64,000 bases of DNA from an uncultured virus (IMG/VR IMGVR_UViG_2049941000_000098) (IMGVR_UViG_2049941000_000098); one strand, 5' to 3'. Positions 13,856 to 62,024 are shown, counted from the stretch's first letter. Made by a program: numbers and translations. The notes: a model not told the origin generated them from the sequence alone.

Positions 13856-14062
13856 TTAAGACCATCTGTTAATTTCACTCAATGCCTCACTCCACGCATT
13901 ATACGCTTGAAACATCAAATCAACCGCCTTTGTTGGAAATCCCAAACTATCCGCGTAATCCGCAAGATTTTGTATTTGGTCGCCCATCATTTCGGCACGT
14001 CCAATAAATCTTTCGGCTTCGGGGTCAAAACCCTCGTAATCATTATCTTTTATCCGTTTCAT
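13856..14062 (-). CDS. Small protein with MKRIKD leader
   Basis: 68-aa ORF. Confidence 0.65.
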   Translation of the reverse strand: MKRIKDNDYEGFDPEAERFIGRAEMMGDQIQNLADYADSLGFPTKAVDLMFQAYNAWSEALSEINRWS

Positions 14063-14344
14063 ACCCTTACTGTTTTTTAGATTTGTTATACATAATATTC
14101 AATATCTTGAGTCTCGTAATCTGCAAAATATTCATTATCATATTGTGCAACACTATCGGCAGGTATATACGCTTCGCCATCAAAATCAAAACGACCCTGT
14201 TTTAATATGTTTGATAATTCGTTTTGACCGTTACCATTCATAATAGCATCCGCTTCTTCAGGGGTGCAATCCAAACTAATACCGATACGCATCCATATCG
14301 TTCTGTTTTCGTTCATATCCTTACTGTTTTTTAGATTTATTGTA
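14060..14344 (-). repeat. 31-bp imperfect direct repeat (14060-14090 / 14314-14344) flanking a single gene
   Basis: tacaataaatctaaaaaacagtaaggatatg vs tataacaaatctaaaaaacagtaagggtatg, 28/31 identical. Confidence 0.9.
14086..14316 (-). CDS. Small acidic hypothetical protein (cargo between direct repeats)
   Basis: 76-aa ORF. Confidence 0.7.
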   Translation of the reverse strand: MNENRTIWMRIGISLDCTPEEADAIMNGNGQNELSNILKQGRFDFDGEAYIPADSVAQYDNEYFADYETQDIEYYV

Positions 14345-16478
14345 ATAGTTGTATTTAGTTCCGTAAATAAGAACCGAGCCTGACGGTACGACTTTCGGCA
14401 TAGTCGTCAGTCCCTCCTGTGCGAACATCGCGCCGCCCTCAACGCCCTCGTCCTTGATAAATTCAGGTACGTCGTCGCACACCCAACATTCGTCGGACAT
14501 CTTGCGTTTGTAGAATTTACTGTCGATGACACCCAGGTTGTTGGTTTTCGCCGCCGCCGAATAATAGTCGTCCGCAGGTACGCAATTGTCGGAAATGATT
14601 TTCTCGACATTTGCATCCTCGGCGTTCAATTGTTCCGCAACCTTTTCGCTTGAACCCATAATCGGAATCCAATTCTGTACCGTGCCGTTCTCACATTCCA
14701 CTTGGATTACGGGCGACAAATCACCATAGTTTACCGCCGCCGCCGACAAACATNNNNNNNNNNNNNNNNNNNNNNNNNNNNNNNTCACTGTCCGATATTT
14801 TGAAATTGTATTTTTTCAATATCGGTAATTTATCCTTCAACGCGTCGATAACCTTGTTGGCGCGTTTGTCACCGTTGACCAACAGTTTTGCCAACAAAAC
14901 AGCGTTGCGTTCGGAATCGTGGACGTTCAATTTTATTTTGTCAACCTTGTCCTTGTCCTCGTCCTCATCGTCCTCATCCTCGTCATCGTCCTCGTCGTTG
15001 AATATGTCTTCCGATTCACCGTTGTCAAGTTCGTCACCCTCGCCGCTTTCGGTTTCAATATCCATATTCAGGTTGTCATCACCCGATTCGTCACCGTTCA
15101 ATTCCTCATTAATCGATTTTTCTTCGGGGTTAATGTCGTCAACCGACAATTCCGACAGGGCTTCAAGTTCGGATGTGTCACCGTTGGCGAACGCCTCCAA
15201 TGCCGAACCCAAACTTTCAAGCAATGTTTTTCCGTCACCGCCGTTACCCGATTCCTCACCCAAACGTTCGTCGATTTGGTCGATAATGTCGTCTTTCACT
15301 TTCTGTGTGTGCGCCGATTTTTGCATCGATATTTCGGTCACGGAATGTGCGAACGCCCTGTCCATGCAATCTTTGACCCGCACGCGTTCGCCGCAACGTT
15401 TAGTGTAACGTTCGACAATATCGTTCATTGAATCACTTACATTCATCAGGCGACCGTTCAACATGTCGTCAGCAAGGTTGTATGCGTCGTCGATAATCAG
15501 GGCTTCCACGTCGTCAAACGATTCTTTCACCGTGTCTTCAACGCGTTTGCGTTCAATGCGTCGTTCGGGACGCGGGAATTGTTTTCGATTGTCAGCGATG
15601 CGTTTTGACGGTTGTGGACGCTTTCTTTGTGAATCACCGAGATTCAACTTGACATCGGGTGTTTCGTCTTCGGTTTCGTTATCCAAATCATCCCCGCCGT
15701 CAATATCCAAATCATCACCGCCGTCAACATCCAAATCGTCGGATTCGGGTTCGTCATCACCAACAACACCGTTATCTTCGTCGATGGTGTCACCGAACGC
15801 GATTGTCAACGCGGTCTGTAACGATTCGGTTTCAAATTTGTTATCCTCAAGAAAATCATATAGAATGTTCAACTCCTCTTCGTCGGCGGTCAGGTCAAGT
15901 TCGTTGTCGATGACCTTGTTGATTATGTCAATCACAGCCGCTTCCTGTGGGTCGCTTTCATTCAATATGTCTTTGTATGATTCCAACATACGCAGTTCGT
16001 CGTCTTTGCGCGAATACGCGTATTTTGTCAATAGGTCGTTGATGACATACAAATCCTGAATCTCGATTTTACGGTTCAAATCACGGCGTTCCAATTCGCC
16101 GCTATCCAAATCGTCACGAACCTTCACAGCGTTAAGGGCGCGTAACACCTTGCGACGTTCCCCGTCCGACAAACGCGACAGGAATTTGCGGCGTTCCGCG
16201 TTCCCCATATCCGCGATTTCGTCAATCGCGTGGCTGTCCAACACAATGTATTGTGTCTTTTGCGGACGGTCAACCTGTGTAATCCGTGAAATGCGTGACG
16301 GTTTGTAGTGTGACTTGTCGCTTATGCGCGACAATGTTTTATTGTTGTTTTTGATTGCGTTAATCGCGTCGTCAAGCACGGTTCTTTTTTGCCGCACGAC
16401 TTCAAGTCCGCGTGCAGAACCCTCGGTGCGTTCTTCACCGTTGCGGATTTTTACCAAACCTGTTAGAAAATCACTCAT
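14321..16478 (-). CDS. Large acidic protein, putative prohead scaffold/core protein (two ORFs joined across a gap)
   Basis: D/E-rich low-complexity tracts, DDLDxDGG repeats, many [KR][IV]xD motifs; own promoter. Confidence 0.55.
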
Positions 16479-16503
16479 TTCGTTTTTAATTTATAAACGT
16501 TTA

Positions 16504-16534
16504 CAAAAATATGTTTTTTATGTTACAATTCAAA
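16504..16534 (-). promoter_or_regulatory. Bacteroidota sigmaA-type promoter
   Basis: TTTG-N19-TATTTTTG upstream of the 16478 start. Confidence 0.65.
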
Positions 16535-16539
16535 ATTTT

Positions 16540-17871
16540 TTAGAACGGGGGCAAATCCTCAAAATCACCGTGCATTTCGGTAAACGAATAGTCAATATCG
16601 TTCATATCCGCCCTGTCAAACTTCTTACCCACCATCATAACCGACGGGGTGAATGACGTTTTGAACGGAACAGGAATCGGAACACCAAGACGGTTTTTCA
16701 ACATAGACACTTTCGTTTCCTGTGTTATCTTCATCGCGTCCGACGTGTATAGGAAAACACAATATGACGACGAACGTTCGACCTCGTTCAGGTCGGCAAT
16801 AGCCTGTAGGTCGTACTGACCCTCACGACGTATCGCGCGTCGGTTGCCCTCGCGGTTGCACTGAACCGCCCACACCATCACGATTTTCTCACCGTTTTCG
16901 TTCTTGAATGTCTTCGCCGCCGACGTTAATTGTTTCAGGATAATATTGCCCGTTTCGGGGTACAATAGTTCCAACTGCCCCACATGGTCAACAATCACCA
17001 TATCCAAACCGCCCATCTTACGTTCCGCCGCCTTGAATAGTTTGTTTATCTTACGGTAATCGGTCATCACTTTTTTTGTGATTTTGGATTCGTCGATAAT
17101 CAACAGGTTGGGGACGACATCACGTTTGAAATCGGGTTCAAGGGAAACAACTAATTCCCCGACGGACGAATCCAACGTGTGATGTTCCATATTGTGTACG
17201 TCAACCGCCAACTCACGCTCGAACATATACCGCGTTTCAAACTGTTTCCACACCATGTCGGGCGGCAACTCAATCGACAATATCATCACTTTCTTACCGC
17301 TTGCGATGTTCGTGTACGCGGTGCTGTCACACAACGTCGTCTTTCCGTGTCCCGTGAACGCGCAGAATGAAACCACCGTGCCACGTTGGAATCCGTTTGT
17401 GGTTTGGTCAAGTTCGTCGATTCCCGTCATCAACCCGCTTTCAAGCGGCTTGTCAACGTCACCGTACAGTTCGGGTTTGCAATCGTCGAAATTGAACTCC
17501 GCGTCGGTTGTCGTTTCCGTGTCGTTCACCAACCGTGACAACCCGTTAAGCAAATCCGACGAGGTTGACGTTTCATTGATGACCTTTGTGGCGTTTTTTA
17601 AAAGGGTCTGACGCAAATAGAAGTCCACCATCGATTTGTAGTGCAGGACTATTTCCGCTTCCGTCTTGGCTATCGATTCGGGTTTGTCGTACAGGTTCGC
17701 GAAATAATCCGCCGACGGGTAATTCCCGTGTTCCGCACATTTCAAACAGTAATCCGCGACATTCTTGTCTTTTTGATTGATAAACGGAAGTGACGACATG
17801 TTGTACAACATATCGTCAATAGGGATTGACTGTTTCAACCCCGCGATTGAATAGAAGAATTTTGCTATCAT
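16540..17871 (-). CDS. dnaB: DnaB-like replicative helicase
   Basis: MTGIDELD..TNGF, Walker A AFTGHGKTT, ILSIEL, VIVDHVGQL, QCNRE, LKNR; ATG at 17871. Confidence 0.9.
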   Translation of the reverse strand: MIAKFFYSIAGLKQSIPIDDMLYNMSSLPFINQKDKNVADYCLKCAEHGNYPSADYFANLYDKPESIAKTEAEIVLHYKSMVDFYLRQTLLKNATKVINETSTSSDLLNGLSRLVNDTETTTDAEFNFDDCKPELYGDVDKPLESGLMTGIDELDQTTNGFQRGTVVSFCAFTGHGKTTLCDSTAYTNIASGKKVMILSIELPPDMVWKQFETRYMFERELAVDVHNMEHHTLDSSVGELVVSLEPDFKRDVVPNLLIIDESKITKKVMTDYRKINKLFKAAERKMGGLDMVIVDHVGQLELLYPETGNIILKQLTSAAKTFKNENGEKIVMVWAVQCNREGNRRAIRREGQYDLQAIADLNEVERSSSYCVFLYTSDAMKITQETKVSMLKNRLGVPIPVPFKTSFTPSVMMVGKKFDRADMNDIDYSFTEMHGDFEDLPPF

Positions 17872-17879
17872 AGATTTTT

Positions 17880-18080
17880 TTATTTGTGATGTCCTAAATG
17901 GTATTTGTTGCAAACGTCACACAGGTACGGTTTGTATTTGAAACTGATACCGTTTTCGTCCCGATAACGTTTCGCGTCGGCGGGGGTATCGAAAGCCATC
18001 TTGGGTTTCATAACGCCACCCTTGCGCGTCCAATGCTGTTTCAGACCGCCGCTGTATATCGATTTCATATCACCCCCCAT
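17880..18080 (-). CDS. Small Zn-ribbon-like protein
   Basis: K.AF.T...A...PYLCDVCNKYHLGH. Confidence 0.65.
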   Translation of the reverse strand: MGGDMKSIYSGGLKQHWTRKGGVMKPKMAFDTPADAKRYRDENGISFKYKPYLCDVCNKYHLGHHK

Positions 18081-18177
18081 TCGTATTTTTCTTTGTAGTC
18101 CATAAATTTAAATTGTTTAAATTGTTATAGTTCAATATCTTTATCAATTCCACATAGTTATCTATAATATTACGTAT

Positions 18178-18755
18178 TTAATATAAATCTTCTGAAAATA
18201 ACTCACCGTCTACCCCATTCGAGCCATCTATTTGTCCTGCATTTAGTGCAATTTTATATGCTTCTTTCCTATTTACAAATACACCTTTATTAGTTATAAA
18301 ACCTTGAGNNNNNNNNNNNNNNNNNNNNNNNNNNNNNNNNNNNNNNNNNNNNNNNNNNNNNNNNNNNNNNNNNNNNNNNNNNNNNNNNNNNNNNNNNNNN
18401 NNNNNNNNNNNNNNNNNNNNNNNNNNNNNNNNNNNNNNNNNNNNNNNNNNNNNNNNNNNNNNNNNNNNNNNNNNNNNNNNNNNNNNNNNNNNNNNNNNNN
18501 NNNNNNNNNNNNNNNNNNNNNNNNNNNNNNNNNNNNNNNNNNNNNNNNNNNNNNNNNNNNNNNNNNNNNNNNNNNNNNNNNNNNNNNNNNNNNNNNNNNN
18601 NNNNNNNNNNNNNTAAAAGGTAGTATATCACAAATCATAGGATGCCTGTATCCACATAATACAAATCCAGTTTCTATACCATAACTTTTCTGAAATTTAT
18701 ATTCAAGTCCATTATCGTAATGAACTGCGGCACAAAGTATGTAGTCAGTTGTCAT
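18178..18755 (-). CDS. Hypothetical phage protein spanning a gap
   Basis: ILCAAVHY...VLCGYRH ... QGFITNKGVFVNRKEAYKIA...ELFSEDLY-stop. Confidence 0.65.
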
Positions 18756-18774
18756 ATCTCAAAGTTTTTTAAGT

Positions 18775-18951
18775 TCAATCAAGAATTTTAAATGGCACTC
18801 CAATATCACCACTCACTACTTCTGCGTTATCATATTCAATAATGATTCTTGAGTGTGGTGGAAAATTCTTCTGCAACCACTCGTTAAAGGGTTTTGCGAG
18901 TTCCTTGAACTCATTCTCCATTTCGATTTTTTCTTTTTTAATACTTTTCAT
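18775..18951 (-). CDS. Small hypothetical protein
   Basis: FKELAKPFNEWLQKNFPPHSRIII...; 5' end adjoins a gap. Confidence 0.5.
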   Translation of the reverse strand: MKSIKKEKIEMENEFKELAKPFNEWLQKNFPPHSRIIIEYDNAEVVSGDIGVPFKILD

Positions 18952-18962
18952 ANNNNNNNNNN

Positions 18963-21544
18963 CATTGTAAAGTGATTGTAAACTATCTTCACAACATTTA
19001 TCAACCATATTTATAGCATATTTTAAATCTTCCATCTGCTCATCAGTTGGTTTCCAATGGGACTGCGGATTATGATTAAGCCATTTATCCATCCATTGCC
19101 CAAGTTCTGATTCTTCTTTGAGTGTTATTACGTTAGTCACTCTTTGAGAATGCACAATACGGCATAACCACTTTAACATTTCCTCATCCTCCTCACTCCA
19201 CTCTTGTTTTTGTTTTGGTTGCACTCTGTTTTTAAGTGAATTTAGAAAATCAATATTTTTTCTGCATTCCTGCTTTGATGGAAATATTCCCTCCTCAAAG
19301 GAAAACACGATTCTGGTTAACGTTTCCTCATCCTCCTCACTCCACGTAGGATTCTGCTTAATGTTTATTTTATCATCTTCCAATAATTCTTCGTATTGTT
19401 CATCATCATTGTCAATTCCCATCATTACTAATACCTTTTTATCCGCATCCCATTCATAGCCTGCTTCTTTCATTTTTGAAAACAAAAGGTCACATTGTTC
19501 TTTTGTTGCAGGATGAATATCGCATTTATTTGCTTCTGTGAGAGAATAGAGACTGTCAGTTACAAATTCTTTACCATCANNNNNNNNNNNNNNNNNNNNN
19601 NNNNNNNNNNNNNNNNNNNNNNNNNNNNNNNNNNNNNNNNNNNNNNNNNNNNNNNNNNNNNNNNNNNNNNNNNNNNNNNNNNNNNNNNNNNNNNNNNNNN
19701 NNNNNNNNNNNNNNNNNNNNNNNNNNNNNNNNNNNNNNNNNNNNNNNNNNNNNNNNNNNNNNNNNNNNNNNNNNNNNNNNNNNNNNNNNNNNNNNNNNNN
19801 NNNNNNNNNNNNNNNNNNNNNNNNNNNNNNNNNNNNNNNNNNNNNNNNNNNNNNNNNNNNNNNNNNNNNNNNNNNNNNNNNNNNNNNNNNNNNNNNNNNN
19901 NNNNNTTGTTTCTACTCCTTTGTGATTTTTAATTTTGTAATTATACAATGAAATTTCGTTTTTGTAACAAAGTACATCACCATCCTTTGCATCTTCAATA
20001 GTCCAAAGTCTGAATGTTTTATCCGCAGTTTCAATATCTATAAAGTAGTCATCGTCACGATAATACATATCATCTTTTATTGACATAACCTTGAAGGTAA
20101 AATCAATACCGTTTGTAATCCAATCGCCAACCTTGAATTTCGATTCAATCTTATCGGCAGGGTTCTGTTCAATCTTCTTCAATTCTTTCTTTTCGGCATC
20201 CCATTCATAGCCTGCTTCTTTCATTTNNNNNNNNNNNNNNNNNNNNNNNNNNNNNNNNNNNNNNNNNNNNNNNNNNNNNNNNNNNNNNNNNNNNNNNNNN
20301 NNNNNNNNNNNNNNNNNNNNNNNNNNNNNNNNNNNNNNNNNNNNNNNNNNNNNNNNNNNNNNNNNNNNNNNNNNNNNNNNNNNNNNNNNNNNNNNNNNNN
20401 NNNNNNNNNNNNNNNNNNNNNNNNNNNNNNNNNNNNNNNNNNNNNNNNNNNNNNNNNNNNNNNNNNNNNNNNNNNNNNNNNNNNNNNNNATCAATCTCCA
20501 TTTTATAATGGTGATATTGATGTATGGTAGCAAGCAGATTGTATTCTCCTGCCAAATGTCTATACACTTGTTGCCTTTAATAATTCGTTTTAATAATTTT
20601 ACTTTCATAGTTATTTAAATTAAATTAGTTGAACTTACTATCTTTTCAATCGTAATGGGTGTTTATATCCCATTAGATTTCCCAAATATCGTCGTGCCTC
20701 GNNNNNNNNNNAATAAGAGGTCACGCTGTTCTTTGGTTGCTGGACAAACCTCTTTATCAGACCACCAATGATTACCTGGACTTATAAGAAAGAGGTTTAC
20801 TGAATCAATGCCACAATATGCTACGGGACAATTAGGATTATTGGAATCTAATAAACCCTTAAAAATAAATGGTCTGTTGTCTTCTTTTGTAACAAGCACA
20901 TCACCATCCTTTGCATCATCAATAGTCCAAAGATGAAATTCACTATCTATATAATCAATATTTGAAAAACCTTTTGTACCATCAATAAATTCGATGTCAT
21001 ACGTATTGTTTTTGATATTCGTTATCAATGTAGGATTAAGTCCGTCACAGATAATCCAATCACCAACTTTAAACTTTGGTTCAACCTTATCAACAGGCTT
21101 CTGCTCGACAAGTTCGTAGTCATCTTGTTCACTAAAATGTGCAACTAATCCGCCTTCAAGACGATACTCTTTGTCCAACATATCAACTTGAATGATTTTA
21201 TGAGAATTATGTATATAATCTCCACCAAGTTCCTTATGTATAATCATATCGCCTTCGTGAAACTTCGGTTTAACTTTATCAACAGACTTCTGCTCACCTT
21301 GCTTTTCAAGCCAAGCAATAACATCTTTATTATCAAAGTTATTGAGTAGTTGAGCATTCCATTCAAAATATTCAATAAGTTCTTTCCTTATCATCTCATC
21401 ATCACTCTCCGCAAGTTCTGGAAAAAGATACTCTAATGTTTGTTTAACATCACTGTACATTTTTTGCTTCCCTTCAAAAAAGTCTTTCACTTTTTGGAAA
21501 ACATACTCATAGGCTTTCGCTCTCTCGTAAGTAGTCATATTCAT
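18963..21544 (-). CDS. Long modular repeat protein, fragmented by gaps and a misplaced insert (20490-20701)
   Basis: Repeated PKFKVGDWI, LWTIxDAKDGDVL, PATKEQxDLL, MKEAGYEWDAxKK and WSEEDE modules across ORFs 20663..21544, 19907..20226 and 18963..19578. Confidence 0.6.
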
Positions 21545-21726
21545 ACTCTTCTAAATTTAGTTAGACACAATTTGTATATGCGCAGGAACACCAATGATTC
21601 ATCTGCGTAGGTCTCTGTGAACTTCATAAAGTCACTTTCATAGTCTTTCGCCCATGATATGCACAAAAGACCTATCCTTATATTCCACTTAAACTCGTAC
21701 ATATCCGCAAGGTTTATAATCACCAA
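21541..21726 (-). CDS. Hypothetical protein
   Basis: 61-aa ORF in a coupled run. Confidence 0.45.
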   Translation of the reverse strand: MVIINLADMYEFKWNIRIGLLCISWAKDYESDFMKFTETYADESLVFLRIYKLCLTKFRRV

Positions 21727-21884
21727 AGTATTTAATAACCCAAAACAACCAACCTACCCTACAATCAAACAATCTCCATTTTATGATGGTGATATTGATG
21801 TACGGCAGCAANNNNNNNNNNNNNNNNNNNNNNNNNNNNNNNNNNNNNNNNNNNNNNNNNNNNNNNNNNNNNNNNNNNNNNNNN

Positions 21885-22126
21885 GAACAATACCATTCCG
21901 TGTCAAACTCAATCATGGTCTGAAATTCGTCCGCGAACCAATTTTCACCCTCATACGATGTCAAACCCGAAAGGAATATCTGTTTAAACGGTTTTTTTTC
22001 ATCTTTGAATAGTGTTTCCCGAATCCCCACAACCTCTCGCTCACACATCACATAAGAACAATCCGTAACATATTCCATTCCGACCCACCAAACCTTTGTG
22101 CCAATCGGATGTTCAAATTCATTCAT
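21885..22126 (-). CDS. Hypothetical protein, 3' end in gap
   Basis: MNEFEHPIGTKVWWV... Confidence 0.55.
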
Positions 22127-22601
22127 TAGCCTGTGGGTATTTCAGTTTGTACGGACAATTCGGGTCAATAAACACGGCGACCTTTCCGCCGTTGTGTACC
22201 GACGTGTCGATGAAGTTCTCTAACATGTTGATTATCTTTTCGGATTCACCAATCGCCTTTGTGACCGTAATGAAACTTACGGGCGAATTGATTTCTTCGA
22301 CGGCGTTGACAACCAAATTCAACGCGGTGTTCGTTGTGTACGGAGTGACCTCCGCGTTCTTTTCAAACGCGAACTGCATCGCGACCGATTTCGCTATGTC
22401 TTTTTTACGACTGTACAACACGTTGTGATGTTCCGTGTTTTTGACGGGCGTGTATTTGAACGCGTCCGACTTTTCCCGTAGTATGTTGCGCATCAGGAAA
22501 CGCGCATGGATTTGCCAAAACCGTTTGCATTGGCTGTAAAACAGGTATTGACATTCCGTACAACCTGCCTGTTTCGCATACTGACATTGTTGGTAACTCA
22601 T
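22119..22601 (-). CDS. Hypothetical protein with N-terminal Cys cluster
   Basis: CQYAKQAGCTECQYLFYSQC. Confidence 0.65.
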   Translation of the reverse strand: MSYQQCQYAKQAGCTECQYLFYSQCKRFWQIHARFLMRNILREKSDAFKYTPVKNTEHHNVLYSRKKDIAKSVAMQFAFEKNAEVTPYTTNTALNLVVNAVEEINSPVSFITVTKAIGESEKIINMLENFIDTSVHNGGKVAVFIDPNCPYKLKYPQANE

Positions 22602-22634
22602 AATTTATTTGTGTTTAAAAATTCCTTTTCAAAG

Positions 22635-22798
22635 TGGTTGTGGTTGGGGTCGCACCAACCTTGCGTTCCGATTGATTGTTGTTGTGATAGGATATAAAAA
22701 TCGGAAACCCCGTTTTGTTTTTCAAACGTTTTTGTTGTGCCATTGTGGAGTGTGCTTTTTCGGGGGCATTGCGGCTCTTAATCGCAATCTTTACAACC
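22635..22798 (-). ncRNA. Putative enlarged tRNA-like structured RNA (~164 nt)
   Basis: Terminal stem GGTTGT/ACAACC+A enclosing four hairpins: ATTGCG/CGCAAT, CCCCG/CGGGG, TTCCGATT/AATCGGAA and T-arm-like GTTGG-TGCGACC-CCAAC. Confidence 0.55.
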
Positions 22799-22966
22799 GT
22801 GTCGGGTGGGCGGCTTTTTGCAACCATATCTCTTGTTGGTTCGCCCACCCAAAAAACAAAGAACCCTATTTTTACGTCGTTTCGGANNNNNNNNNNGGAC
22901 GCACGGTTGTCAAGCCGTGTTACGGTCAGGAAAGGGTGTTAAGCCAAAACCTTCCGTATGGACGTG

Positions 22967-23038
22967 TAGTCGGTGGGGGAATCGAACCCCCATTACGAGA
23001 ATGAAAATCTCGTGTCCTAACCGTTAGACGAACCGACC
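22967..23038 (-). tRNA. tRNA-Glu (anticodon TTC)
   Basis: GGTCGGT/ACCGACT acceptor, CGAGA-TTTTCAT-TCTCG anticodon arm, GGGGG-TTCGATT-CCCCC T arm; no encoded CCA. Confidence 0.95.
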
Positions 23039-23244
23039 GTTTCTGTTTTCGCTTTGTTGTTTTTGCGGAAATCGCGAACCAAATAAAACAAAAACGCAAT
23101 CATAATGATTGTAACGAATATGTTTAACACGGGAACAAACCCCGCGTACCGTATAATGTTCCTGTTCGACCNNNNNNNNNNCGCCAAAAGGCAACCGCCG
23201 ACCCCGAAACCGTACAATATTGCGAATATCAATATAAACATCAT
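23017..23244 (-). CDS. Small membrane protein (3' end uncertain, overlaps tRNA)
   Basis: Two hydrophobic stretches; preceded by TACATTTG at 23270-23277. Confidence 0.45.
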   Translation of the reverse strand: MMFILIFAILYGFGVGGCLLAXXXXSNRNIIRYAGFVPVLNIFVTIIMIAFLFYLVRDFRKNNKAKTETVGSSNG

Positions 23245-23309
23245 CGTTCAATTCTTTTTAAATCGTTGGCAAATGTAATAATGTTTTTGTTACACGCAAC
23301 ATTTATTTT

Positions 23310-46059: not shown

Positions 46060-46062
46060 AGA

Positions 46063-48047: not shown

Positions 48048-48127
48048 GTGTTTGTTTTAAAACAAAATAAACACCCCGCCTGTTGACAAGGTGTTTATAA
48101 TTCTACAAACCGTTTGTTCGGTTATAA

Positions 48128-48496: not shown

Positions 48497-48540
48497 ATAA
48501 ACTTGAATTTAATTATTAATACCGAATACAAACATACGAA

Positions 48541-49761: not shown

Positions 49762-49787
49762 TTTGTTGTTGTTTTTANNNNNNNNNN

Positions 49788-50511
49788 GTGAATTATTTGT
49801 CGGCGTAGAAACAGTATGCTTGAATGTTGCTTTTGTGCCTGAATAACGATACGAATCCCTTAATTCCGTGAAAAACTCGCTTGCTTTGGTTATTCCGTTC
49901 GTAAGCGAATAAGTAAAGGTTGTGGCAAGTGCTGTCTTGGTCGCCGTGGCGTACATGGGTTGCCACGTTTCCTCCCCATGTCCAGGCAGTGTCACGCTCA
50001 TCGTACCGCCCGCATATGGACTCATGGAACATAGAACCGAAAAACGTCCGTCAATCGGTCTGCTGATAGAACGCAAATTATTAACATTCGCCCAATGGTA
50101 TGTTGACGATGTTGACGCAAACGGGAAGAAATTAGGCAAATTAAATACAGGTGTCGCTTCTATTGATACGCTATATCCCCATATTGTCGAATTATTAGAT
50201 TTATACGAATAAAACGACAATGGATATGTGTGATAAGGAGTGTCCCACGCTTGATAGTTATCCGAATAACGCGCCTGTCCTGAATAATAATAGTACGTGT
50301 AATTTGCCGAAATGGTATTAGTGACCTTTTTAAGTTCGTAATCTGTGTAACTATATGGGAATGCCGATGCGGTATAACTATACCATGNNNNNNNNNNCGT
50401 TTTGGTTGTGTTACTTAATGATACCGCAACCTTACGAAACGTGCTACCATTAAAACTAACACGATGTATCGGGGACGTAGTATTACCGTTGTAATAACAA
50501 TATTGTGCCAT
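49788..50511 (-). CDS. Tyr/Ser/Thr-rich hypothetical structural protein
   Basis: 5' part of the 656-aa ORF, separated from the GT2 gene by a gap. Confidence 0.55.
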
Positions 50512-50514
50512 ATC

Positions 50515-53442: not shown

Positions 53443-53445
53443 TTA

Positions 53446-55041
53446 CTACGATATGAGAATTTTATAAATACGATTACCAATTGTGTCAGGTGATGTATAG
53501 CAATATGTTTTGTAAGCGATTGTTACATCATTAATGGTTTTATTGTGATAATAAACCGTTTGATTGTTTCCATCCGTATATGCCTTTAACGCCCAATCCG
53601 CCGTATGGTCACGCCAAACATTAAATCCAGTGTCCCACCACCACACCTTGCGTAATGTCCAACTGTTTGGAATCTCGAATGTGTACGGGGTTGTACTACT
53701 ATGACTTGGGAATGATACATTCAGACCGATATTGGTTGATTGTTCGGGTGTTTTTGAACTAAAATCCTCTGTGCTTTGTAAAACAGACTTGGCTTTGATG
53801 CTTTGTTCTTGCGTTACACTTAAACTTGCGCTATTCGTATTGGCAAATACGGGACACACAATCTCAATGCCCTTATTACCCGATTTGATTTCGTGACCAA
53901 CAAATGCCGCAAGAGTTGATTCGTTGCCCGCACTGTCAGAATATTTTGTTCCGTTGCCAAATGTGACACCACCCTTGAACGAAACGGTTTGTTCAACCGA
54001 CGTACTTATCGTATTGCCACCAATGTTGATATTTTCCCCATTAATTTGGAACAAACCAGCCGCACTGACAGTTACAGTGATTGTTTGTTCGGTTGATGTG
54101 GTTGATACCGACGCAACGGATGTGTCAACATTGTTCGCGGTGTGATAAAGTTGAATTTCAGATACAGCACCCGCATAATTACCCAACGTCGTTTCCGATG
54201 TTCCGTTACTACGCTTAACCGTACCTTTGTTGCCCGTAATTTTGAAACTATATGTTTTTGATTTACTGCCAATTTTGATTAAATCGTCATCGCCGCTTGT
54301 TTTTGCAATTGTCGTACTTGCGTTTGTCGCAACATATGGCTGATAGACTTTTACGAGGATTTTCTTGAATATATCATCAACACTCATTCCCGTCGTTATT
54401 TGTGTCCCAACGGGAATACCGCCAACCTCAATGTTTGTTGTGTACGTACTCGATATTTGCGAACCGCCTATCTCGAAATAAACGCTTCCGCCATAACGAT
54501 ACGACTTGTTGCTTGCCAAATCAACGTATATCTTGCCCGTTTCACCAACTATTTGGGTTGTGTGCGCGGAGTCCTCGTAAAATGCACCGTTGTAATAGTA
54601 ACCCTCGATGACATCGTCCACATAAGATGGTAGATATTGTGACGGTATTTTTGAGTTTTCGTCAAGCGGGGCAATACCATCAGGCTCACCGACGGGTAAA
54701 ACATCGACGGGGATTTCCGAACTCGAACCGCCGCCCGAGCCACCGTCTTGAATCAACATGATTTTTACCCAACCATCTGTTTCGTTCTTAAAATAATAGT
54801 AACCGACCTCTGAAACAACGATACCGTCAACGGTTTCGGGTTGGTCACTGTCTAATTGCGCGTCATACTCACCTGTTACATACACAACCTGTCCCATATA
54901 GTGATTCTCGCCGATTCCGTCCACCAAGTGCGCATAACGCCTTACAACGTCACGATTGTCGAGTGGTGCGCCCATACCGACCTGAAACATATTGTTGAAT
55001 GTTACCGCACCGACCGTGTATTTCCTTTCATCTGCTGACAT
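53446..55041 (-). CDS. Fibre/structural protein
   Basis: ATG at 55041 (MSADERK); GIAPLDENSKIPSQYLPSYVDDVIEG...GETGKIYVD motif. Confidence 0.7.
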   Translation of the reverse strand: MSADERKYTVGAVTFNNMFQVGMGAPLDNRDVVRRYAHLVDGIGENHYMGQVVYVTGEYDAQLDSDQPETVDGIVVSEVGYYYFKNETDGWVKIMLIQDGGSGGGSSSEIPVDVLPVGEPDGIAPLDENSKIPSQYLPSYVDDVIEGYYYNGAFYEDSAHTTQIVGETGKIYVDLASNKSYRYGGSVYFEIGGSQISSTYTTNIEVGGIPVGTQITTGMSVDDIFKKILVKVYQPYVATNASTTIAKTSGDDDLIKIGSKSKTYSFKITGNKGTVKRSNGTSETTLGNYAGAVSEIQLYHTANNVDTSVASVSTTSTEQTITVTVSAAGLFQINGENINIGGNTISTSVEQTVSFKGGVTFGNGTKYSDSAGNESTLAAFVGHEIKSGNKGIEIVCPVFANTNSASLSVTQEQSIKAKSVLQSTEDFSSKTPEQSTNIGLNVSFPSHSSTTPYTFEIPNSWTLRKVWWWDTGFNVWRDHTADWALKAYTDGNNQTVYYHNKTINDVTIAYKTYCYTSPDTIGNRIYKILIS

Positions 55042-55057
55042 ATTGTATTTTTTTAAA

Positions 55058-56827
55058 TTATCCCCAAATAATTTTGAATGTGTTTGACTCCATATACGTA
55101 TTGTTCTTGTATATATACCGTTTATATTGAACACCGTTTTTTGTCGTGTTAACAACCGAAAAATCGTTAATACGGTTATCGGGTTCATACCTTATTGCAA
55201 AGGTATTAAAATATTTGATTTCCGTTATGTTAATGGTGGACGGAATTTCAAACATGTATCTATCTGTTAAACCATGTTGTAACGGGAACGTTATCTCGAT
55301 GTACCCAACACCCCTACTTACAAGCGGTTGTTCGTATGTGTCATTTAAATGTTCTATGTCCGTGTTCGCGTATATCGGATATACAAATTCAAACGAAACC
55401 CCGTTGGATGTGTCCACCGTCCCGCTTGGTAACGGCTCACCGTATTCCTTACCCTCACTGTCATACGGTTGGTCGCCTTCGCCGTATGTTACCGACCCCC
55501 TGTATGTCACGATACATTCTTCATACCGTTGTATCACGGGTGTGATTGAATTGTCGGGTTCTTCGGTCACTTCTGCACCATCCCTGAACGCGTATTCCGT
55601 AGCCACACCCGCCGTATATCCCTGAATTGTTCCGTCAAGTGTGATGTTTCCTCGGTTGTAATTAATCCATATTGTTGGTTGGATTGAATTGCCGACCTTT
55701 ATCAGACGTTGCGCCGCCGTCGCCGATGTTTCGATTGTCGCGGACGGCGTTGTTATGGTCGGATTTATTGATGGTGCAAGTATGTCACGCAACAGTTTGT
55801 TCAAAAGTGTGTTTTTTTTGATAAAATCACCCTTATCGACACCGCCGACGTTTACGGTTGACGTGATACCGCCGTCACCTTCTTTCTTCTCACCAATCAC
55901 AACAAGGTCGTTGATGTCGTATGTAACGGATTTTGTTTTTTGTTCCGATATGACAACCGTCAAAGGTGTTAGTGTACTTATGTCATAATCATGTGTCCAA
56001 TGTATAGTCACATTCCCGTTGTCGGTTGTAACATCAAATAACGCACACTCCGAACCATACCAACACTGTACAATCGGTTTTTCCTTTCCATGTGTCGTCT
56101 TTGCTATCGTATAACTACATTCGTCGTTTTCGTTTGTAAAAACGTCCACAAACACGTCGGATGTGAAAATTACATAAAGTTCATGTTGTATGATGATGTC
56201 CTCTCCCCAAGAAACCGTGATGTCACCGTTGTTGTTAACCATGTCGAACATGACAAACTCACCATCAAGCCAACATTGTACGAACGGATTATCACCGCTT
56301 TCGTGTAATGACTTGGGAACGGTAAACTCGTTAACCAAACCCGTGTCATAAACAAATCTATATTCGGATTCCGTGATAAAAACATTCAAAACATCATCAT
56401 CACATATTTCACCGACCCTTGTCCAACTTACATTCAGGTCGCCATTGGTGTTCGTTATATCACATATCACTATCTCACCATTAAGCCAACATTGTACGAA
56501 CGGATAATCACCCATTTGGTGCGTGGTCTTCGGAATTTCGACAAAACTAACCGAACCTAAATTAGTGAACACCCCAGTATATCCGTCAACCACGGTGTTG
56601 TAACCGAATTTCAACACCAAATCCTCATCGGCGATACCCGACTTCCACCAATATTCGGCAACCGCACCGTTTTCGACGATACCAACCGTCTTGCCAACCA
56701 TACGTACCGCCAACGGGACAGCCGCGCATGCCGCTTCCTTTGATTCATACGTACCGTAATAAAAATCAATATTCGCGGACGGGTTCGCGTTCCGCACGTT
56801 GACCGATAAATCGAATGAATTTGCCAT
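55058..56827 (-). CDS. Fibre/structural protein with three tandem PxVQCW domains
   Basis: PFVQCWLNGE, PFVQCWLDGE, PIVQCWYGSE repeats. Confidence 0.7.
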   Translation of the reverse strand: MANSFDLSVNVRNANPSANIDFYYGTYESKEAACAAVPLAVRMVGKTVGIVENGAVAEYWWKSGIADEDLVLKFGYNTVVDGYTGVFTNLGSVSFVEIPKTTHQMGDYPFVQCWLNGEIVICDITNTNGDLNVSWTRVGEICDDDVLNVFITESEYRFVYDTGLVNEFTVPKSLHESGDNPFVQCWLDGEFVMFDMVNNNGDITVSWGEDIIIQHELYVIFTSDVFVDVFTNENDECSYTIAKTTHGKEKPIVQCWYGSECALFDVTTDNGNVTIHWTHDYDISTLTPLTVVISEQKTKSVTYDINDLVVIGEKKEGDGGITSTVNVGGVDKGDFIKKNTLLNKLLRDILAPSINPTITTPSATIETSATAAQRLIKVGNSIQPTIWINYNRGNITLDGTIQGYTAGVATEYAFRDGAEVTEEPDNSITPVIQRYEECIVTYRGSVTYGEGDQPYDSEGKEYGEPLPSGTVDTSNGVSFEFVYPIYANTDIEHLNDTYEQPLVSRGVGYIEITFPLQHGLTDRYMFEIPSTINITEIKYFNTFAIRYEPDNRINDFSVVNTTKNGVQYKRYIYKNNTYMESNTFKIIWG

Positions 56828-56828
56828 T

Positions 56829-57934
56829 TTATTGTATTGTTATTGTTACGTTTGTTCCCATCGGTGTTGCCGCCATGAAAAGGAAAGCGTTGTATTGTTC
56901 GGTCGCCCCATTTTCATACGACATTGTTATTGTATATTCNNNNNNNNNNNNNNNNNNNNNNNNNNNNNNNNNNNNNNNNNNAATTCATTTTTGGTTTCAT
57001 CTTTCAGATATTGGTTGTTACCCGTGACGGCGGTTTTTAAAACACGTCCCGTTGGCATCACAACAATAAAACCATTACCAATGTTCGCCAAAGACAACGT
57101 ACACGCCGCACTCCAATCCCAGTATTCCAACGCCCTTACTGACATATTGTCGGTTATCTTGCTCGACACATTGCCGTAAAACATCTTCTTTGCAACATTT
57201 ATTGTCCGTGTGGCAACCGCCGTGCCACCCGAAATTCTTACATCCGATTCCGTACCGTCATTCTTAACGGGAATAGCCACACTTGCGCCATAATCGGTTT
57301 CCGCGCGAAATATCGTATTCCCGATTGTTGAGAATATGGTTGTGTTTGTCGGAGAAACAATTTCGTTTCCACGCTTGAATATCGTTTCACCTTGTTCGCA
57401 ACCAGCGTTCAGATGGTATGTATAACCGCTTTGTCCGCTAAAATAACCGTCTGTGTATGACACCGACAATGTTTGTTCCAACGATGTACCCAATTCCACC
57501 TTTGTGACCGCCGATGTTGAATTGAGTGTGATTGTCGGTTTGTTCGCGATTACGTCGATTACCTTTGTCAACATTTCCTTTATGACTTCCCATGTCGTGT
57601 GAGGTGTCCCGTCGGGCTTTTTCGCACGAATCCATTGTCCGTCGGAATAGTTACCGACCGTAACACCCATCACTTGAAAATCCTCATTAACAATCTCGCT
57701 CGACAGATTCGCGTACATCTCGTCCGTGATGCCGATATTGTTGCGGGCAACGGATTGTTCGGATTCGTTAAGTTCTTGCGGGACATAAAGCACCGCGTCC
57801 GTCGTCACCGATTTGAGCAACGGTATATCGACACCCAAACGGTTCGGCATGTTCGGCATCTTGACGCGCAACGTACCCGATTGCGTCAAGACACGTACTT
57901 TCAATCTTGGCACTATGTTGTTTTCGCTTGCCAT
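56829..57934 (-). CDS. Fibre/structural protein
   Basis: VLYVPQEL...QSVARNNIG; after the gap reads EYTITMSYENGATEQY...TITIQ-stop at 56829. Confidence 0.65.
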
Positions 57935-58299
57935 TATTGGTTGATACCTTTTTCGGTTGTTATCGCTAAATCAATCGGTTGCCACGCCGTCCACACGTCC
58001 TTGTAACCGTCTTTGAAATGTTCGTTCACTTCGTGGACGCAACAACGGATGTAAACCGTTCCGAACTCCAATGTCCCTGCGGGTATGACACACACAATCG
58101 CGTCATCCTCGATGTAACAGTTCTCGAAAATCGGGGATTCGGGGTCTTCGTCGTTCGGTTTGTCGGATTCCGCCGTAAACAACGATTTGCCCACCTTGAC
58201 CTCAATCGTCAACCAATTACGCGTAACGTCAATCGGCAAACCTTCGTAGTCAATCGGACTTACCTGTAATTCCAAATCACTATCCTTCGATAATATCAT
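57934..58299 (-). CDS. BppU-N-like small structural protein
   Basis: 121-aa beta-rich ORF heading the fibre operon; TAAATTTG at 58316-58323. Confidence 0.5.
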   Translation of the reverse strand: MILSKDSDLELQVSPIDYEGLPIDVTRNWLTIEVKVGKSLFTAESDKPNDEDPESPIFENCYIEDDAIVCVIPAGTLEFGTVYIRCCVHEVNEHFKDGYKDVWTAWQPIDLAITTEKGINQ

Positions 58300-58418
58300 A
58301 CACTTTGTTTTTCTGCAAATTTAATAAAAAAATGCTTTTTATAAATAAAACCGCGTTTGGCGTATGTTATTACACTTTCTTTTGGTATTCCAACGGAGGA
58401 AGCGGCGCNNNNNNNNNN

Positions 58419-58617
58419 ATAAATCAACATCAAACCATCCGTTACCAAACGTATAATCACCAGCATCATACGTACTTATTTGTTGACCATATCCGTTATA
58501 TGTATTGTGTAGATAACCATCTATGATTTCTTTTGTTGGTACAATCAAGTAATCCTCTTCCTCAAAGGCATCATCGTAGTAATGTGTGTTCCTTAACACC
58601 GTGTAATCTGTTCCCAT
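58419..58617 (-). CDS. Small acidic hypothetical protein, 3' end in gap
   Basis: Preceded by the 33-bp repeated leader. Confidence 0.55.
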
Positions 58618-58658
58618 ATCTCTAAAATTTTAAATTGTTAAACAAATTCCAAAATTTG

Positions 58659-58886
58659 TTAATCTTCGTTTAAATACATTTCTTCGTACTCATTCATTAG
58701 AAAATCAACCATATCTTTCTTGAACATATCTACATCATCAATAACAATGTCCCAACCATAAGTAGTTCCATTATGTATTTCTTCACTACAATTATCCACT
58801 CCAGCGTCTACATCATTTTCTATGTATGACTTAACCTCGTCAACATCGTAAATATCACTAACAAAATCTTCAAGGTTTCTCATCAT
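58659..58886 (-). CDS. Small very acidic hypothetical protein
   Basis: 75-aa D/E-rich ORF; 5' end adjoins a gap. Confidence 0.55.
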   Translation of the reverse strand: MMRNLEDFVSDIYDVDEVKSYIENDVDAGVDNCSEEIHNGTTYGWDIVIDDVDMFKKDMVDFLMNEYEEMYLNED

Positions 58887-58897
58887 ANNNNNNNNNN

Positions 58898-59238
58898 AAT
58901 CTCATAAGTTGTTATACCACTGTGTAAAAGATTTAATGTTTGACAATCATAAACGTCGTAAATTTTACCATTACCGTAATTAGGGTTATCAATTCCGTTA
59001 CGCCTACCCAACATAGATTTTCTTTTCTTTTCAATCGTATCTTGACTATATTTATAACCCGACATTCCACCATGACATCGTCNNNNNNNNNNNNNNNNNN
59101 NNNATATTTTTTTATCGCCTTGGTAAGTAAGACCCCACTGCCCAAATAATTATCTTTCGACAAATCTTCCGATGTGTGTTTACCAACGTACTTTTTGCCA
59201 TTTAATTTATTTTCCGTTAAATAAACAATGTATTCCAA
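58898..59238 (-). CDS. GIY-YIG (Seg-like) homing endonuclease with NUMOD3-like motif, fragmented by gaps
   Basis: YIVYLTENKLNGKKYVGKH...YLGSG..L.KAIKKY; GYKYSQDTIEKKRKS...NPNYG. Confidence 0.8.
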
Positions 59239-59244
59239 TATATA

Positions 59245-59712
59245 TTACGCTTTGAATAAATAAACTTTATCTTTTTGACTTGCCATACACATAACATCGA
59301 TATGTAACCACGACACACCGTCTTCAATCCTAACATTGTACGGTAATTTCGATTTGTTCGCGACAATCAGTTTACGCATCTGTTCTGCTGTCATTTTAGA
59401 CGAAACGATGTCAACTGCTTTACCAAAACAATGTTGCGATAGATACAGGACACCCTTATCGGTTTTTTCTTTAACCGTCGGGGAAATGTTTGTACGTAAA
59501 CCCCGTTGTGAGTTTTTGCCACCCCAAGACCAATCGTTGATAACCATCGGTACTTTGAGAATATCACAGCGTAACACTAATACTGTTTCTAAAAGTGCGG
59601 TATCAATAAAATTCCACGCATTCTCACTCCAACGCTTGAATGTCGGTTCGTCAACAAACTCCTGTACTTTAAAATACTTTTTGATTTCCGCTAAAACCTT
59701 ATTTCGTTCCAT
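59245..59712 (-). CDS. Endolysin, peptidase M15-like
   Basis: GLR...SQHCFGKAVD...WLHID zinc ligands; next to the holin; ATG at 59712. Confidence 0.85.
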   Translation of the reverse strand: MERNKVLAEIKKYFKVQEFVDEPTFKRWSENAWNFIDTALLETVLVLRCDILKVPMVINDWSWGGKNSQRGLRTNISPTVKEKTDKGVLYLSQHCFGKAVDIVSSKMTAEQMRKLIVANKSKLPYNVRIEDGVSWLHIDVMCMASQKDKVYLFKA

Positions 59713-60229
59713 TATTCGATTTTTTAGTTGTTTTTTTGTTTTGTTTCTCTTTTTCGTCAACCACCTCTTTAATAAAATCACCTGATGTCATATCAAAATG
59801 ACGGGCGGTTTTGTCAACTAATATCTTTTGCAACATTTTCGCCCACTTCGCATCATTGCAGGACGATATGTTCTCCAATATCGACACAACCTGAATCATA
59901 CAGAACGCGGATGCCGCAAGGTGGGGTAATTTCAAATCGGCGTAAACGAAACAGTATTTGTCGATACCTTGCAATAATAAAATGATTATTGAAATACCGA
60001 ACACCGTCCAACCCAACGATTTCAACCGTTGTGACTGAATCTTTCCGTGTGACACACCTTTGTACTTTTGCGCCACGCGGCGGTTTAACATATACGCCGT
60101 CAGGACATCAATAATTATCGAAGCGAATATCACATACATCACCTCTTCAAGCGGCTCGACGTATGCGGCGAACGCACCGATACCCGCAAAAAACATTCTA
60201 ATCAACCAATCGGACACTGCGTTGTGCAT
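59699..60229 (-). CDS. Holin
   Basis: Three or four hydrophobic segments, DVLTA, SILEN; overlaps the endolysin start. Confidence 0.8.
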   Translation of the reverse strand: MHNAVSDWLIRMFFAGIGAFAAYVEPLEEVMYVIFASIIIDVLTAYMLNRRVAQKYKGVSHGKIQSQRLKSLGWTVFGISIIILLLQGIDKYCFVYADLKLPHLAASAFCMIQVVSILENISSCNDAKWAKMLQKILVDKTARHFDMTSGDFIKEVVDEKEKQNKKTTKKSNNGTK

Positions 60230-60273
60230 AATCCTAATATTTTAATTCTATTTAACAATCTTAACAAACAAAA

Positions 60274-61018
60274 TTAATCATACGATATTGAAACCACAAC
60301 ATTGGGAACCTTCGTCTCTTTATATATTGCGTTAGCCATACTACGGACTCTGTTACCTAAACTCTCCGAACCACTATTGTCCATATCGTCAAGCACACCG
60401 TCTCGATAGTAACAAGTTGCGCCATAACTGTCTCCATACGCTTTAAAGTACCCGTACACACGAATCGTGTCCCTTTCAGTTACATCATACTCAAAGTAGC
60501 TCGCGTCTTGACCGCAGCTGTATAAAATATTTTTCAACTTGGACTTTAACGAGGTCATTTGACTCTTATCCAAGTAATTCCCCATTTTCTTATTAAACTC
60601 TTCCCGTATACCGTCAATGACGTCCTGTGTTATGTAATTTTTGTAATACTTAATGAAATCGGGTTTGTACAACTCAAAGTCTTCGGAATTTATTCTTTTT
60701 TCTTTTCCCGTNNNNNNNNNNCACAACATCCTTTTTAAAGTTTAAAAACCATCCCGTTCCACTCGCTTCTGTGCCAAGTTCAAAAAGTATACTAACACGC
60801 CGTGGTTCTTGCTGTTCAAAGCAAATCTTAAACCCCAAGGATTTACCATCCCCAAGCGGTACTTTGTCAAAATAAGCCGCTACAAGCTTCCACTGTGGGT
60901 AGTCGGTATAAATTGCCGCCGAATAGTCGCCGCGCTGAACTTTCTTAAGCAAAATATTAAACTGCTTCTCAGCCTCGCTCTTAGCGTCCTTAACCCTCAT
61001 TAATCTCTTTAAATTCAT
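60274..61018 (-). CDS. One or two hypothetical proteins (MNLKRLMRVKD leader) split by a gap
   Basis: ORFs 60674..61018 and 60274..60729. Confidence 0.55.
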
Positions 61019-61136
61019 AGCCTTTATATTTTTTAATAATACTTTTCTCCATTTACAGTCTCAATATCTAACGATNNNNNNNNNNNNNNNNNNNNNNNNN
61101 NNNNNNNNNNNNNNNNNNNNNNNNNNNNNNNNNNNN

Positions 61137-61372
61137 TATATTGCAGCATACTCGGTAACCGCTTGAACCGTGTAGGTTTCGTTCATACCCTCGTAACCAA
61201 GACTGACCGTTACGCTAAACCTGCCGTCGCGCACCCAATACACGTCCTTCGCAATCAAAAGGTCTGTCGCAAGCTGTAGCGCGTGCTCCGCCGCCTCATC
61301 CTCGTTCCTTGCATCTACGTCAAGGCTAAAAATGCCGTGAACTCCAAACATTAAACCTACCTCGTATTTCAT
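61137..61372 (-). CDS. Small hypothetical protein, 3' end in gap
   Basis: MKYEV...VDARNEDEAAEHA; ATG at 61372. Confidence 0.55.
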
Positions 61373-61388
61373 AACTCTAATATTTAAA

Positions 61389-62024
61389 TTATTTAACAAT
61401 CTCCACAAACCTTTGTTTCCTAACACTTGAATACGGGTTCGCGTCCACCACATCAATTTTCACCACGGTTTGTTTCTTCTGAAACCAGCGAATAAAAAAA
61501 ATCTTTGACGGTGGTTTTATCGTTTGTTTTTCACCCGACACAATCACGCTTAACTCGTTGTTGAACGTGGATTCCACATCTATTTTGTTCGGGTATTTAA
61601 GTTTCAGGTTCAACACACGCCACCTGTCCGCCAACGTCGTATCTACATTAACGTCGTAATTGAAAATGGTGTCGGTGAAATATATCGAATCGTGTGTTGT
61701 GGTTTGGGTCAATATGTATTCAAGACGTTGGATGTTTTTGTCTTTTATTTTTAGTTCCTTACGGAGTTCGTTCAAATTCCGAATGATACTATCGTTGGAA
61801 TATTCCAACATTTCCTTTGTAAGTTTCAATTCGTAGTTTTTCCCGTTGACGGAATCAAGTTTCGCTGTCACCATTTGTTCATACGCCTTGTAGTTGTTCA
61901 TCGCAAGGGAATAATCGGTTTGAAGATGTTTGTTTTTAGCCAACAGAAAACCGATATACAACACCATCGCGACGAATACTATCGCGATAATCAACGCCAA
62001 TTTGTTTTTTATGTATTCCAACAT
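61389..62024 (-). CDS. Spanin-like lysis accessory protein
   Basis: N-terminal TM helix, coiled coil, FFIRWF...NPY C-terminus; heads the lysis operon after TATATTTG at 62049-62056. Confidence 0.6.
   Translation of the reverse strand: MLEYIKNKLALIIAIVFVAMVLYIGFLLAKNKHLQTDYSLAMNNYKAYEQMVTAKLDSVNGKNYELKLTKEMLEYSNDSIIRNLNELRKELKIKDKNIQRLEYILTQTTTHDSIYFTDTIFNYDVNVDTTLADRWRVLNLKLKYPNKIDVESTFNNELSVIVSGEKQTIKPPSKIFFIRWFQKKQTVVKIDVVDANPYSSVRKQRFVEIVK

Follow-up and report, generated by a model that had tools for sequence, protein, structure and literature searches.

Three loci in a 64,000-nucleotide (nt) stretch of DNA from an uncultured virus (IMG/VR IMGVR_UViG_2049941000_000098; this whole stretch is referred to as the window) each carry one to three ORFan genes set between the intact end of a resident gene and an orphan copy of that same gene end, 33-51 nt in length, which adjoins the next gene. 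The ORFan cassettes at these loci, designated L1 (14.1-14.3 kb), L2 (45.2-45.5 kb) and L3 (60.2-61.4 kb), were probably gained or exchanged by homology-guided recombination with diverged co-infecting relatives, at junctions that are specific to each slot. The repeat pairs had been pointed out in a sequence-only reading of the window, and all were found at the places it gave, on the minus strand. As it had also claimed, the repeats differ from locus to locus, those of L1, L2 and L3 sharing nothing with one another.

The window is best explained as part of a lytic T4-like phage of ruminant-gut bacteria with a genome of approximately 140 kb, and DNA of this phage is present in ruminant-gut metagenome runs from nine studies. 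Every long open reading frame (ORF) of the window lies on the minus strand, as do all the features of the three loci described below. Its closest relative is G001, a complete contig of 142,338 bp with direct terminal repeats in IMG/VR, which shares synteny with the window and has a nucleotide identity of 67-98%.

Locus L3 is placed within the lysis operon. The resident gene (61389-62024), the first of the operon and weakly matched to DUF6549, ends in an upstream repeat (61370-61410) that consists of the codons for FVEIVK and a stop, a 16-nt leader and the ATG of the cargo. The cargo (60274-61372, partly masked) comprises three ORFans (61372 to approximately 61061, 60674-61018 and 60274-60729), for which no family was found in Pfam or PHROGs and no homologue in G001 or IMG/VR. 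It is followed by the orphan copy (60227-60269), which reads FVKIVK and stop, then the leader, then the ATG of the holin gene (59699-60229), so that the insertion stands between the first gene of the operon and the holin. In G001 this site is empty: the end of the resident gene is followed by 2 nt and the ATG of the holin, with a single junction. Two more distant viral contigs (L002 and L003) likewise have the L3 gene followed directly by genes for a membrane protein and a lysin.

A third and more decayed copy of the L3 junction (58615-58650, minus strand) precedes the ORFan 58339-58617, which belongs to a second window-specific island (58339-59238) located behind the endolysin gene and missing from G001. 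An 18-nt motif of the L3 junction occurs three times in the window with no more than three mismatches, against 0.05 occurrences expected, the three being confined to a span of 2.8 kb. Two further candidates in this region were set aside as AT-rich and weak, namely a match between the end of the endolysin gene and 58639-58681 (score 17, reached by 0 of 100 nulls), and a further copy near 58320 seen by eye. The endolysin gene itself differs between the two phages: that of G001 (43240-44748; L012:3240-4748) has an intein of approximately 1 kb (Intein_splicing and LAGLIDADG_3, ...SQHC|FDDK...IQGN|CFGKA...), and the window endolysin is without an intein at that exact point (59424-59430).

At L2 the resident gene (45466-45597) encodes a 43-amino acid protein that is 90% identical to its G001 counterpart across 40 residues. 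Its last 19 or so codons (45466-45522), ending in DYQRTGKTKAERSLKSNF and a stop, form the upstream repeat. The cargo (45218-45445) is a single acidic ORFan of 75 amino acids with a G+C content of 0.373, assigned to phrog_5861 (unknown function). Beyond it the orphan copy (45160-45211) reads NYRCAGKTKAERSLSK and stop and finishes 3 nt before the ATG of the adjoining downstream gene (44399-45157). G001 again shows an empty site, with the flanking genes adjacent, a single copy of the repeat, and a stop codon that overlaps the GTG of the next gene.

At L1 the upstream repeat (14312-14344) is made up of the last eight codons (YNKSKKQ and stop) of a long gene of the replication region, a GGAT spacer and the ATGAA with which the cargo begins. 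The cargo (14086-14316) is an ORFan of 76 amino acids with a G+C content of 0.355, compared with 0.42 for the window; it has no match in Pfam or PHROGs and no homologue in G001, and only 13- and 16-residue matches were returned from IMG/VR. The orphan copy (14058-14090) spells YNKSKKQ and stop outside the frame of the cargo and ends in the start codon of a 68-amino acid gene (13856-14062) without counterpart in G001. The two copies are identical at 30 of 33 nt and lie 254 nt apart. Here the relatives do not show an empty site next to the same gene but have other content. The order in the window is long gene, cargo, orphan, 68-amino acid gene, gene X (13078-13836) and a terminator region; in G001 the 188-amino acid homologue of X stands directly behind the long gene, and a 44-amino acid gene comes after it, preceded by an incomplete copy of the terminator region and a junction resembling a gene end, and in the metagenome contig L019 the gene end runs directly into a terminator-like region (GCCTTTTCAAATTCATAA...). 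The view that accessory genes had been inserted at these places holds by way of the empty sites at L2 and L3, the expectation of empty-site alleles in relatives being borne out at those two loci and not at L1.

The differences between the copies argue that the orphans are alleles. In the frame of the upstream gene, 13 of the 18 differences fall on third codon positions (binomial p = 0.00085), nine of 13 at L2, and the differing codons are synonymous in ten cases and non-synonymous in five, the synonymous share among all possible single changes being 21%. Identity of the ungapped coding cores is 92% at L1, 69% at L2 and 86% at L3. Both coding differences of the L1 orphan are synonymous and equal to the L019 allele (TAT AAC), the functional copy being equal to G001, and a GTT in the L3 orphan is the state found in both G001 and L003. 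The orphans are consequently taken to be alleles from a diverged relative, both copies having diverged while coding; a non-coding duplicate would not drift with a third-position bias. This agrees with the earlier proposal that the displaced copy is the allele of a related phage.

Were the repeats instead generated in situ, by template switching during replication or by a staggered break, the 30-50 nt copies would have been identical at birth and would have diverged later. This explanation is unlikely, although it survives better than the other alternatives to recombination between relatives. The same topology is known from insertion with long target duplication, where 46-bp repeats overlap a gene 3' end and mobility genes are lacking (PMC2853133), and the L1 copies are still 91% identical. 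However, a non-coding orphan should drift regardless of codon position, contrary to the bias described above; variants of the orphans recur in relatives; and the published repeats are near-identical (43-49 of 45-49 positions), compared with 69-92% identity here.

No integrase, transposase or reverse transcriptase was identified among 79 ORFs of the window, nor by PHROGs searches of 32 ORFs, nor among 180 of the 222 ORFs of G001 (the other 42 being 35 of fewer than 70 amino acids and seven crossing the borders of the segments analysed), in line with what had been noted from the window alone. No common att or attC site was found, the repeats being locus-specific, and the sole tRNA of the window, which is also its sole Rfam match, lies away from all three loci. 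This tRNA-Glu (TTC; 22966-23038, coding strand) is kept in G001 (7551-7623, 81% identity). Since most ORFs of both phages are without a family, there is room for a dedicated but unrecognised enzyme, either a novel recombinase or a reverse-transcription route, that inserts cassettes at gene ends. Such an enzyme is given only a slim chance. Apart from the searches above, which detected neither a candidate enzyme nor a site common to the loci, the repeats' length and their identity vary as those of homology-dependent events would, and general recombination suffices in T4-type phages (PMC2839356). The suggestion of an RNA- or cDNA-templated route was not upheld, there being neither a reverse transcriptase nor any feature pointing that way.

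General recombination functions are encoded by G001, which has a RecA-family (UvsX-like) recombinase, an Mre11-like phosphoesterase and an SMC-like ATPase, next to a Gp23 T4-like major capsid protein, a gp20-like portal, an S77 prohead protease, a sliding clamp and RNase H. Judging by synteny with G001, the phage of the window would also possess a T4-type backbone and a general recombination system.

The cargo itself gave few leads. Six cargo or extra proteins had no tblastn match in G001. IMG/VR scans with two of the cargo proteins returned no relative, ESM Atlas gave no usable lead for two, and tblastn with two gave one weak Vibrio phage match for one and none for the other. The G+C content of the cargo is lower than that of the window at L1 and L2 (0.36-0.37 versus 0.42). 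No promoter of the TATATTTG type, the one motif searched, was found inside or bordering the cargo.

The repeats were compared with chance in two ways. In a gene-end test, 45 coding nt plus 25 nt downstream were aligned to the 3 kb downstream of each gene, with distant 3-kb windows of the same strand as the null. The scores were 27 for L1, 19 for L2 and 26.5 for L3, and none of 1000 nulls reached any of them. Across the window, seven of the 69 testable gene ends beat all 100 of their nulls, where approximately 0.7 were expected (the L1 gene is outside the automatic ORF set and was tested apart from the 69), and in G001 ten of 221 did so, with approximately 2.2 expected. Apart from L2 and L3, the seven in the window trace to shared gene starts, generic leaders, a tandem repeat of 22 nt in an intergenic region and a weak AT-rich match. 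In a junction-pair test, the 66 nt around every start codon were compared in 317 near and 2387 far pairs; three near pairs scored at least 20, against 0.13 expected. These were L1, L3, and the L3 junction paired with the junction that precedes ORF 58339-58617 (score 22.5).

Several candidates from these comparisons were rejected. The top match of the gene-end scan (35253-35534, score 22) proved to be a perfect 22-nt intergenic tandem repeat and no gene-end copy. This direct repeat, AAACACGAATCAACAAACGGTT, lies at 35194-35249 with a spacing of 34 nt, has a gene end on one side and a promoter-like element on the other, and may be a regulator-binding site. A 53-nt repeat (9138-9190/9763-9815) considered as a fourth orphan was shown by tblastn to correspond to the C-terminus common to a family of paralogues, several of which occur in G001. 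Similar consecutive junctions at 12194, 11595 and 11056 were not counted, as they consist of the generic leader ACTTTAAAACRTACAGATATG, which is widespread in both genomes. Such generic motifs, including the Shine-Dalgarno (SD)-like AAAGGAGAATAAAACTATG of a G001 gene array, occur in the nulls too. In G001, a run of small genes (137828-140929) has junctions of which nearly all are ...KGE and stop with AAAGGAGAATA(A/G)AACTATG; the AAAGGAGAATA site of this run is SD-like and sits inside the last codons of the preceding gene, and leaders elsewhere are SD-less.

Repeats that are merely functional look-alikes, i.e. ribosome-binding or leader signals rather than products of recombination, are rated marginally lower than a dedicated enzyme, and for the coding part of the repeats this explanation is largely refuted. 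Generic leaders do recur in both phages, SD-like KGE-stop junctions are found in the G001 array, and the leader motif of L3 is present three times. Look-alikes, however, leave unexplained the 8-17 in-frame, synonymously diverged codons upstream of the leader, the confinement of each repeat to its own locus, and the single copy at empty sites.

Strain variation was examined in the Logan contigs of four metagenome runs (X1, X5, X6 and X9), compared with positions 44398-62100. In the probable source sample, a contig of 14,836 nt (depth approximately 52) covers the L3 cargo together with both copies, and another of 1,264 nt spans L2 without any difference. The independent sheep-gut run X5 has the L2 structure, including cargo, on two contigs with 95-99% likeness. 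The L2 and L3 structures are therefore no assembly artefact, and the concern that merged strains had produced the repeats was not borne out; strain variants do occur in the sample (loose ends in X1), yet with these contigs in hand such an origin can be practically dismissed.

At L3, the sequence of X5 becomes unlike that of the window exactly after the junction ATG (for 248 nt) and exactly before the pre-holin junction (for 121 nt). X5 thus has a different cargo between the same two copies of the L3 junction. In X6, one contig joins 60260 to 61368, a weak indication, as its short side measures 34 letters and the content between is not known. In X6 and X9, contigs depart from the window sequence at 45157, where the gene downstream of L2 has its ATG, and contigs of X5 and X6 end at 58299 and 58300, respectively, i.e. 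at the ATG below the second island. Positions 60355-60945 are without cover in X5, X6 and X9, as is 58582-59763 in X9, which is no evidence of absence where no contig joins the two sides. Joints in X5 (58653 to 44398) and X1 (56693 to 60688, with a side of 21) defied interpretation; the similar junction motif at approximately 35.8 kb or the masked stretch beside 44398 is their probable cause.

Masking also bears on how the reading frames are to be taken. The window contains 52 masked N runs, the lengths of which are false: where contigs have 2, 4 and 24 letters, the window has 81, 42 and 61 N (45762-45842, 56940-56981 and 61076-61136, respectively). Frames across N runs are therefore unreliable, which applies to the first L3 cargo ORF at its end, to the second and third where they overlap, and to the upstream part of the L1 gene.

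Homology-guided recombination between relatives could proceed as follows. The substrate would be the slot's own junction, comprising the last codons of the upstream gene, a short leader and the next gene's start codon. An incoming piece would bring an intact gene end together with a leader for its cargo, and the resident allele of the gene end, joined to the native leader and ATG of the downstream gene, would be displaced behind the cargo as a non-coding orphan. From then on the junction could act as a 'linker', homologous recombination there leading to loss, renewed gain or replacement of cassettes. Such events would rely on the general recombination system of the phage (a RecA/UvsX-like recombinase and an Mre11-like nuclease) rather than on a site-specific enzyme. 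Homeologous recombination by phage recombinases was reportedly described by Martinsohn and colleagues in 2008. The initial event may have been the entry of a looped-out circle through a single crossover, an out-of-register crossover between concatemers, or homology-facilitated illegitimate joining; single crossover of a circle, as the sequence-only reading had offered, is plausible. Products of the process would survive because the downstream gene retains its native leader: with no phage-type promoter in the cargo, it is this retained leader that would make the insertions viable.

A bolder version holds that each operon junction is its own attachment site, and that mini-circles of cargo plus junction pass between co-infecting relatives and re-enter by single homologous crossover. 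This is a tentative idea that we consider more likely wrong than right. If true, the phage population would run an integrase-free, integron-like exchange of cassettes with gene ends as the recombination sites.

Several observations weigh against the proposal that cassettes move by homology-guided recombination with relatives. Some of the similarity between junctions is generic leader or ribosome-binding sequence, such as ACTTTAAAACRTACAGATATG and AAAGGAGAATAAAACTATG. The scar is not present at every window-specific island, the gene above the island 46517-47221 scoring at null level, so the process would often be traceless or would be one of several. G001 is the only close complete relative in the collections searched; hence donor lineages could not be named, nor was any cargo encountered at a different locus. 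With just three differences between the copies, L1 offers little basis for an allelic origin of its own orphan. Because of its short side and the content between its ends, the X6 joint at L3 may represent a replacement rather than an empty site. Finally, no circle junction or precise-excision joint was found at the loci in assembled contigs, from which rare forms are dropped.

Elements of the proposed process have precedents. Cassettes and mini-circles of T4-type phages that involve PeSL (promoter-early stem-loop) elements are said to have been described by Comeau and colleagues in 2014. In an earlier paper, PeSL mini-circles were physically shown and T4-type recombination was stated to need less than 50 bp of homology (Arbiol et al. 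2010, PMC2839356). The present case resembles the PeSL system in that a T4-like phage has ORFan cassettes that differ between close relatives, short direct repeats and no integrase, and in that the phage's own recombination, acting at patches of less than 50 bp, is proposed here too to bring about the exchange. Unlike in the PeSL system, the repeats of L1-L3 are the gene end and leader of the slot and not a genome-wide promoter/stem-loop, the promoter motif is not at the borders of the cargo, and the cargo is promoterless (as regards the phage's own promoter type) and lies within an operon; moreover, the cassettes described here are known from contigs, circles being unobserved.

A PeSL-like case does exist elsewhere in the window. 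At 12183-12965 (minus strand), approximately 0.7 kb with two ORFs (12243-12943) lies between two copies of TTTATATATTTG plus stem-loop. G001 has one copy of the TTTATATATTTG element, at 1388-1407, which aligns to both 12223-12242 and 12944-12963. A promoter-like TTATATATTTG with a short stem-loop and a conserved leader, PeSL-like in appearance, was found at 63886, 12959 and 12238 (also at 62056, 46506 and 35180).

For the C-terminal displacement of rhs genes, a loop-out circle and a single homologous crossover are proposed (Jackson et al. 2009, PMC2935791). As with rhs, the incoming piece would come with its own gene end, and the old end lies as a silent orphan downstream, looking conserved rather than decayed. 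The differences are that rhs displacement involves a long and functionally distinct toxin tip, core homology of hundreds of bases and a bacterial chromosome, whereas in the present phage the duplication covers 8-17 codons, the protein stays as it was and separate genes form the payload. Insertion with long target duplication concerns inserts without mobility genes, including 46-bp repeats over a gene 3' end (Furuta, Abe, Kobayashi 2010, PMC2853133). It shares with the present loci the lack of mobility genes, unique direct repeats of more than 30 bp, and a relative whose empty site has just one copy (L2 and L3), and differs in that the copies described here are diverged alleles (69-92%) with a codon-position bias, pointing to two parental lineages. 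The Botstein-Campbell 'linker' model and the 'moron accretion' of Hendrix are summarised in PMC2839356. Exchange of modules via short conserved junctions and accretion of single genes between residents are common to these models and to the loci of the window. Morons have their own promoter and terminator; in the cargo there is no promoter of the phage's type, the one motif searched. Unlike those of the linker model, the linkers of the window are specific to their slots and contain coding sequence.

The arrangement at L1-L3, with an intact end upstream and a displaced homologous end downstream from another allele, is that of a Campbell-type insertion or C-terminal displacement. An integron or tyrosine-integrase island would have an integrase and a common attC or att site, neither of which is seen in the window or, for the integrase, in the 180 G001 ORFs covered. 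The best reading is that ordinary recombination suffices and that these loci are a variant of published models, with no need for a new mechanism. The idea of an undescribed mechanism of gene acquisition is not supported, the same logic having been published for Rhs displacement, PeSL mini-circles and long target duplication. A keyword search of the open-access literature found no phage report of gene-end orphans with codon-position bias, which is no proof of absence.

The remainder of the window is that of a sparsely annotated phage. Searches of Pfam and PHROGs identified a DnaB-like helicase, a family-A DNA polymerase, a SNF2-type helicase, glycosyltransferases, tail proteins, a holin and an endolysin, and left the majority of ORFs without family assignment. 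A DNA search with 13000-17000 gave no match among 50,697 deposited phage genomes. An IMG/VR scan with the holin matched nothing, another with the L2 downstream gene matched only G001, and one metagenome scan matched a single contig of 1.7 kb. The host is presumably a member of the Bacteroidota, an assumption made on the grounds that the promoter-like TTATATATTTG fits the Bacteroidota -7 motif.

Further differences between the window and G001 were observed outside the three loci. The family-A DNA polymerase is encoded by one ORF of 850 amino acids in G001 and by two in the window (4466-6424 and 2725-4482); the polymerase region of the window (2725-6424) has approximately 1.4 kb extra, mostly masked (3515-4050), which may be an intein, an intron or a homing-endonuclease insertion. 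Two structural blocks (32737-35534 and approximately 36000-42405) occur in reverse order in G001 (24974-27234 and 17645-24931, respectively), representing a block transposition. At 18081-21886 there is a window-specific island of 3.8 kb (approximately 0.3 kb in G001) with five or six ORFs, which share repeats of 42-75 nt with 67-93% identity (families D1, D4, D9 and D10) and have the look of tandem paralogues.

Gain of ORFans is the chief way in which large phages diversify, and the joints of such events can rarely be read. Three events, perhaps four, are readable to the base in the window, with their duplicated codons, an allele from another lineage, the retained leader and alternative cargo. 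They offer concrete, testable material with which to ask if cassettes are moved by T4-like recombination alone. Should this be so, the PeSL and 'linker' idea would be extended beyond common regulatory elements to gene ends that are specific to each slot, in an uncultured group of rumen phages.

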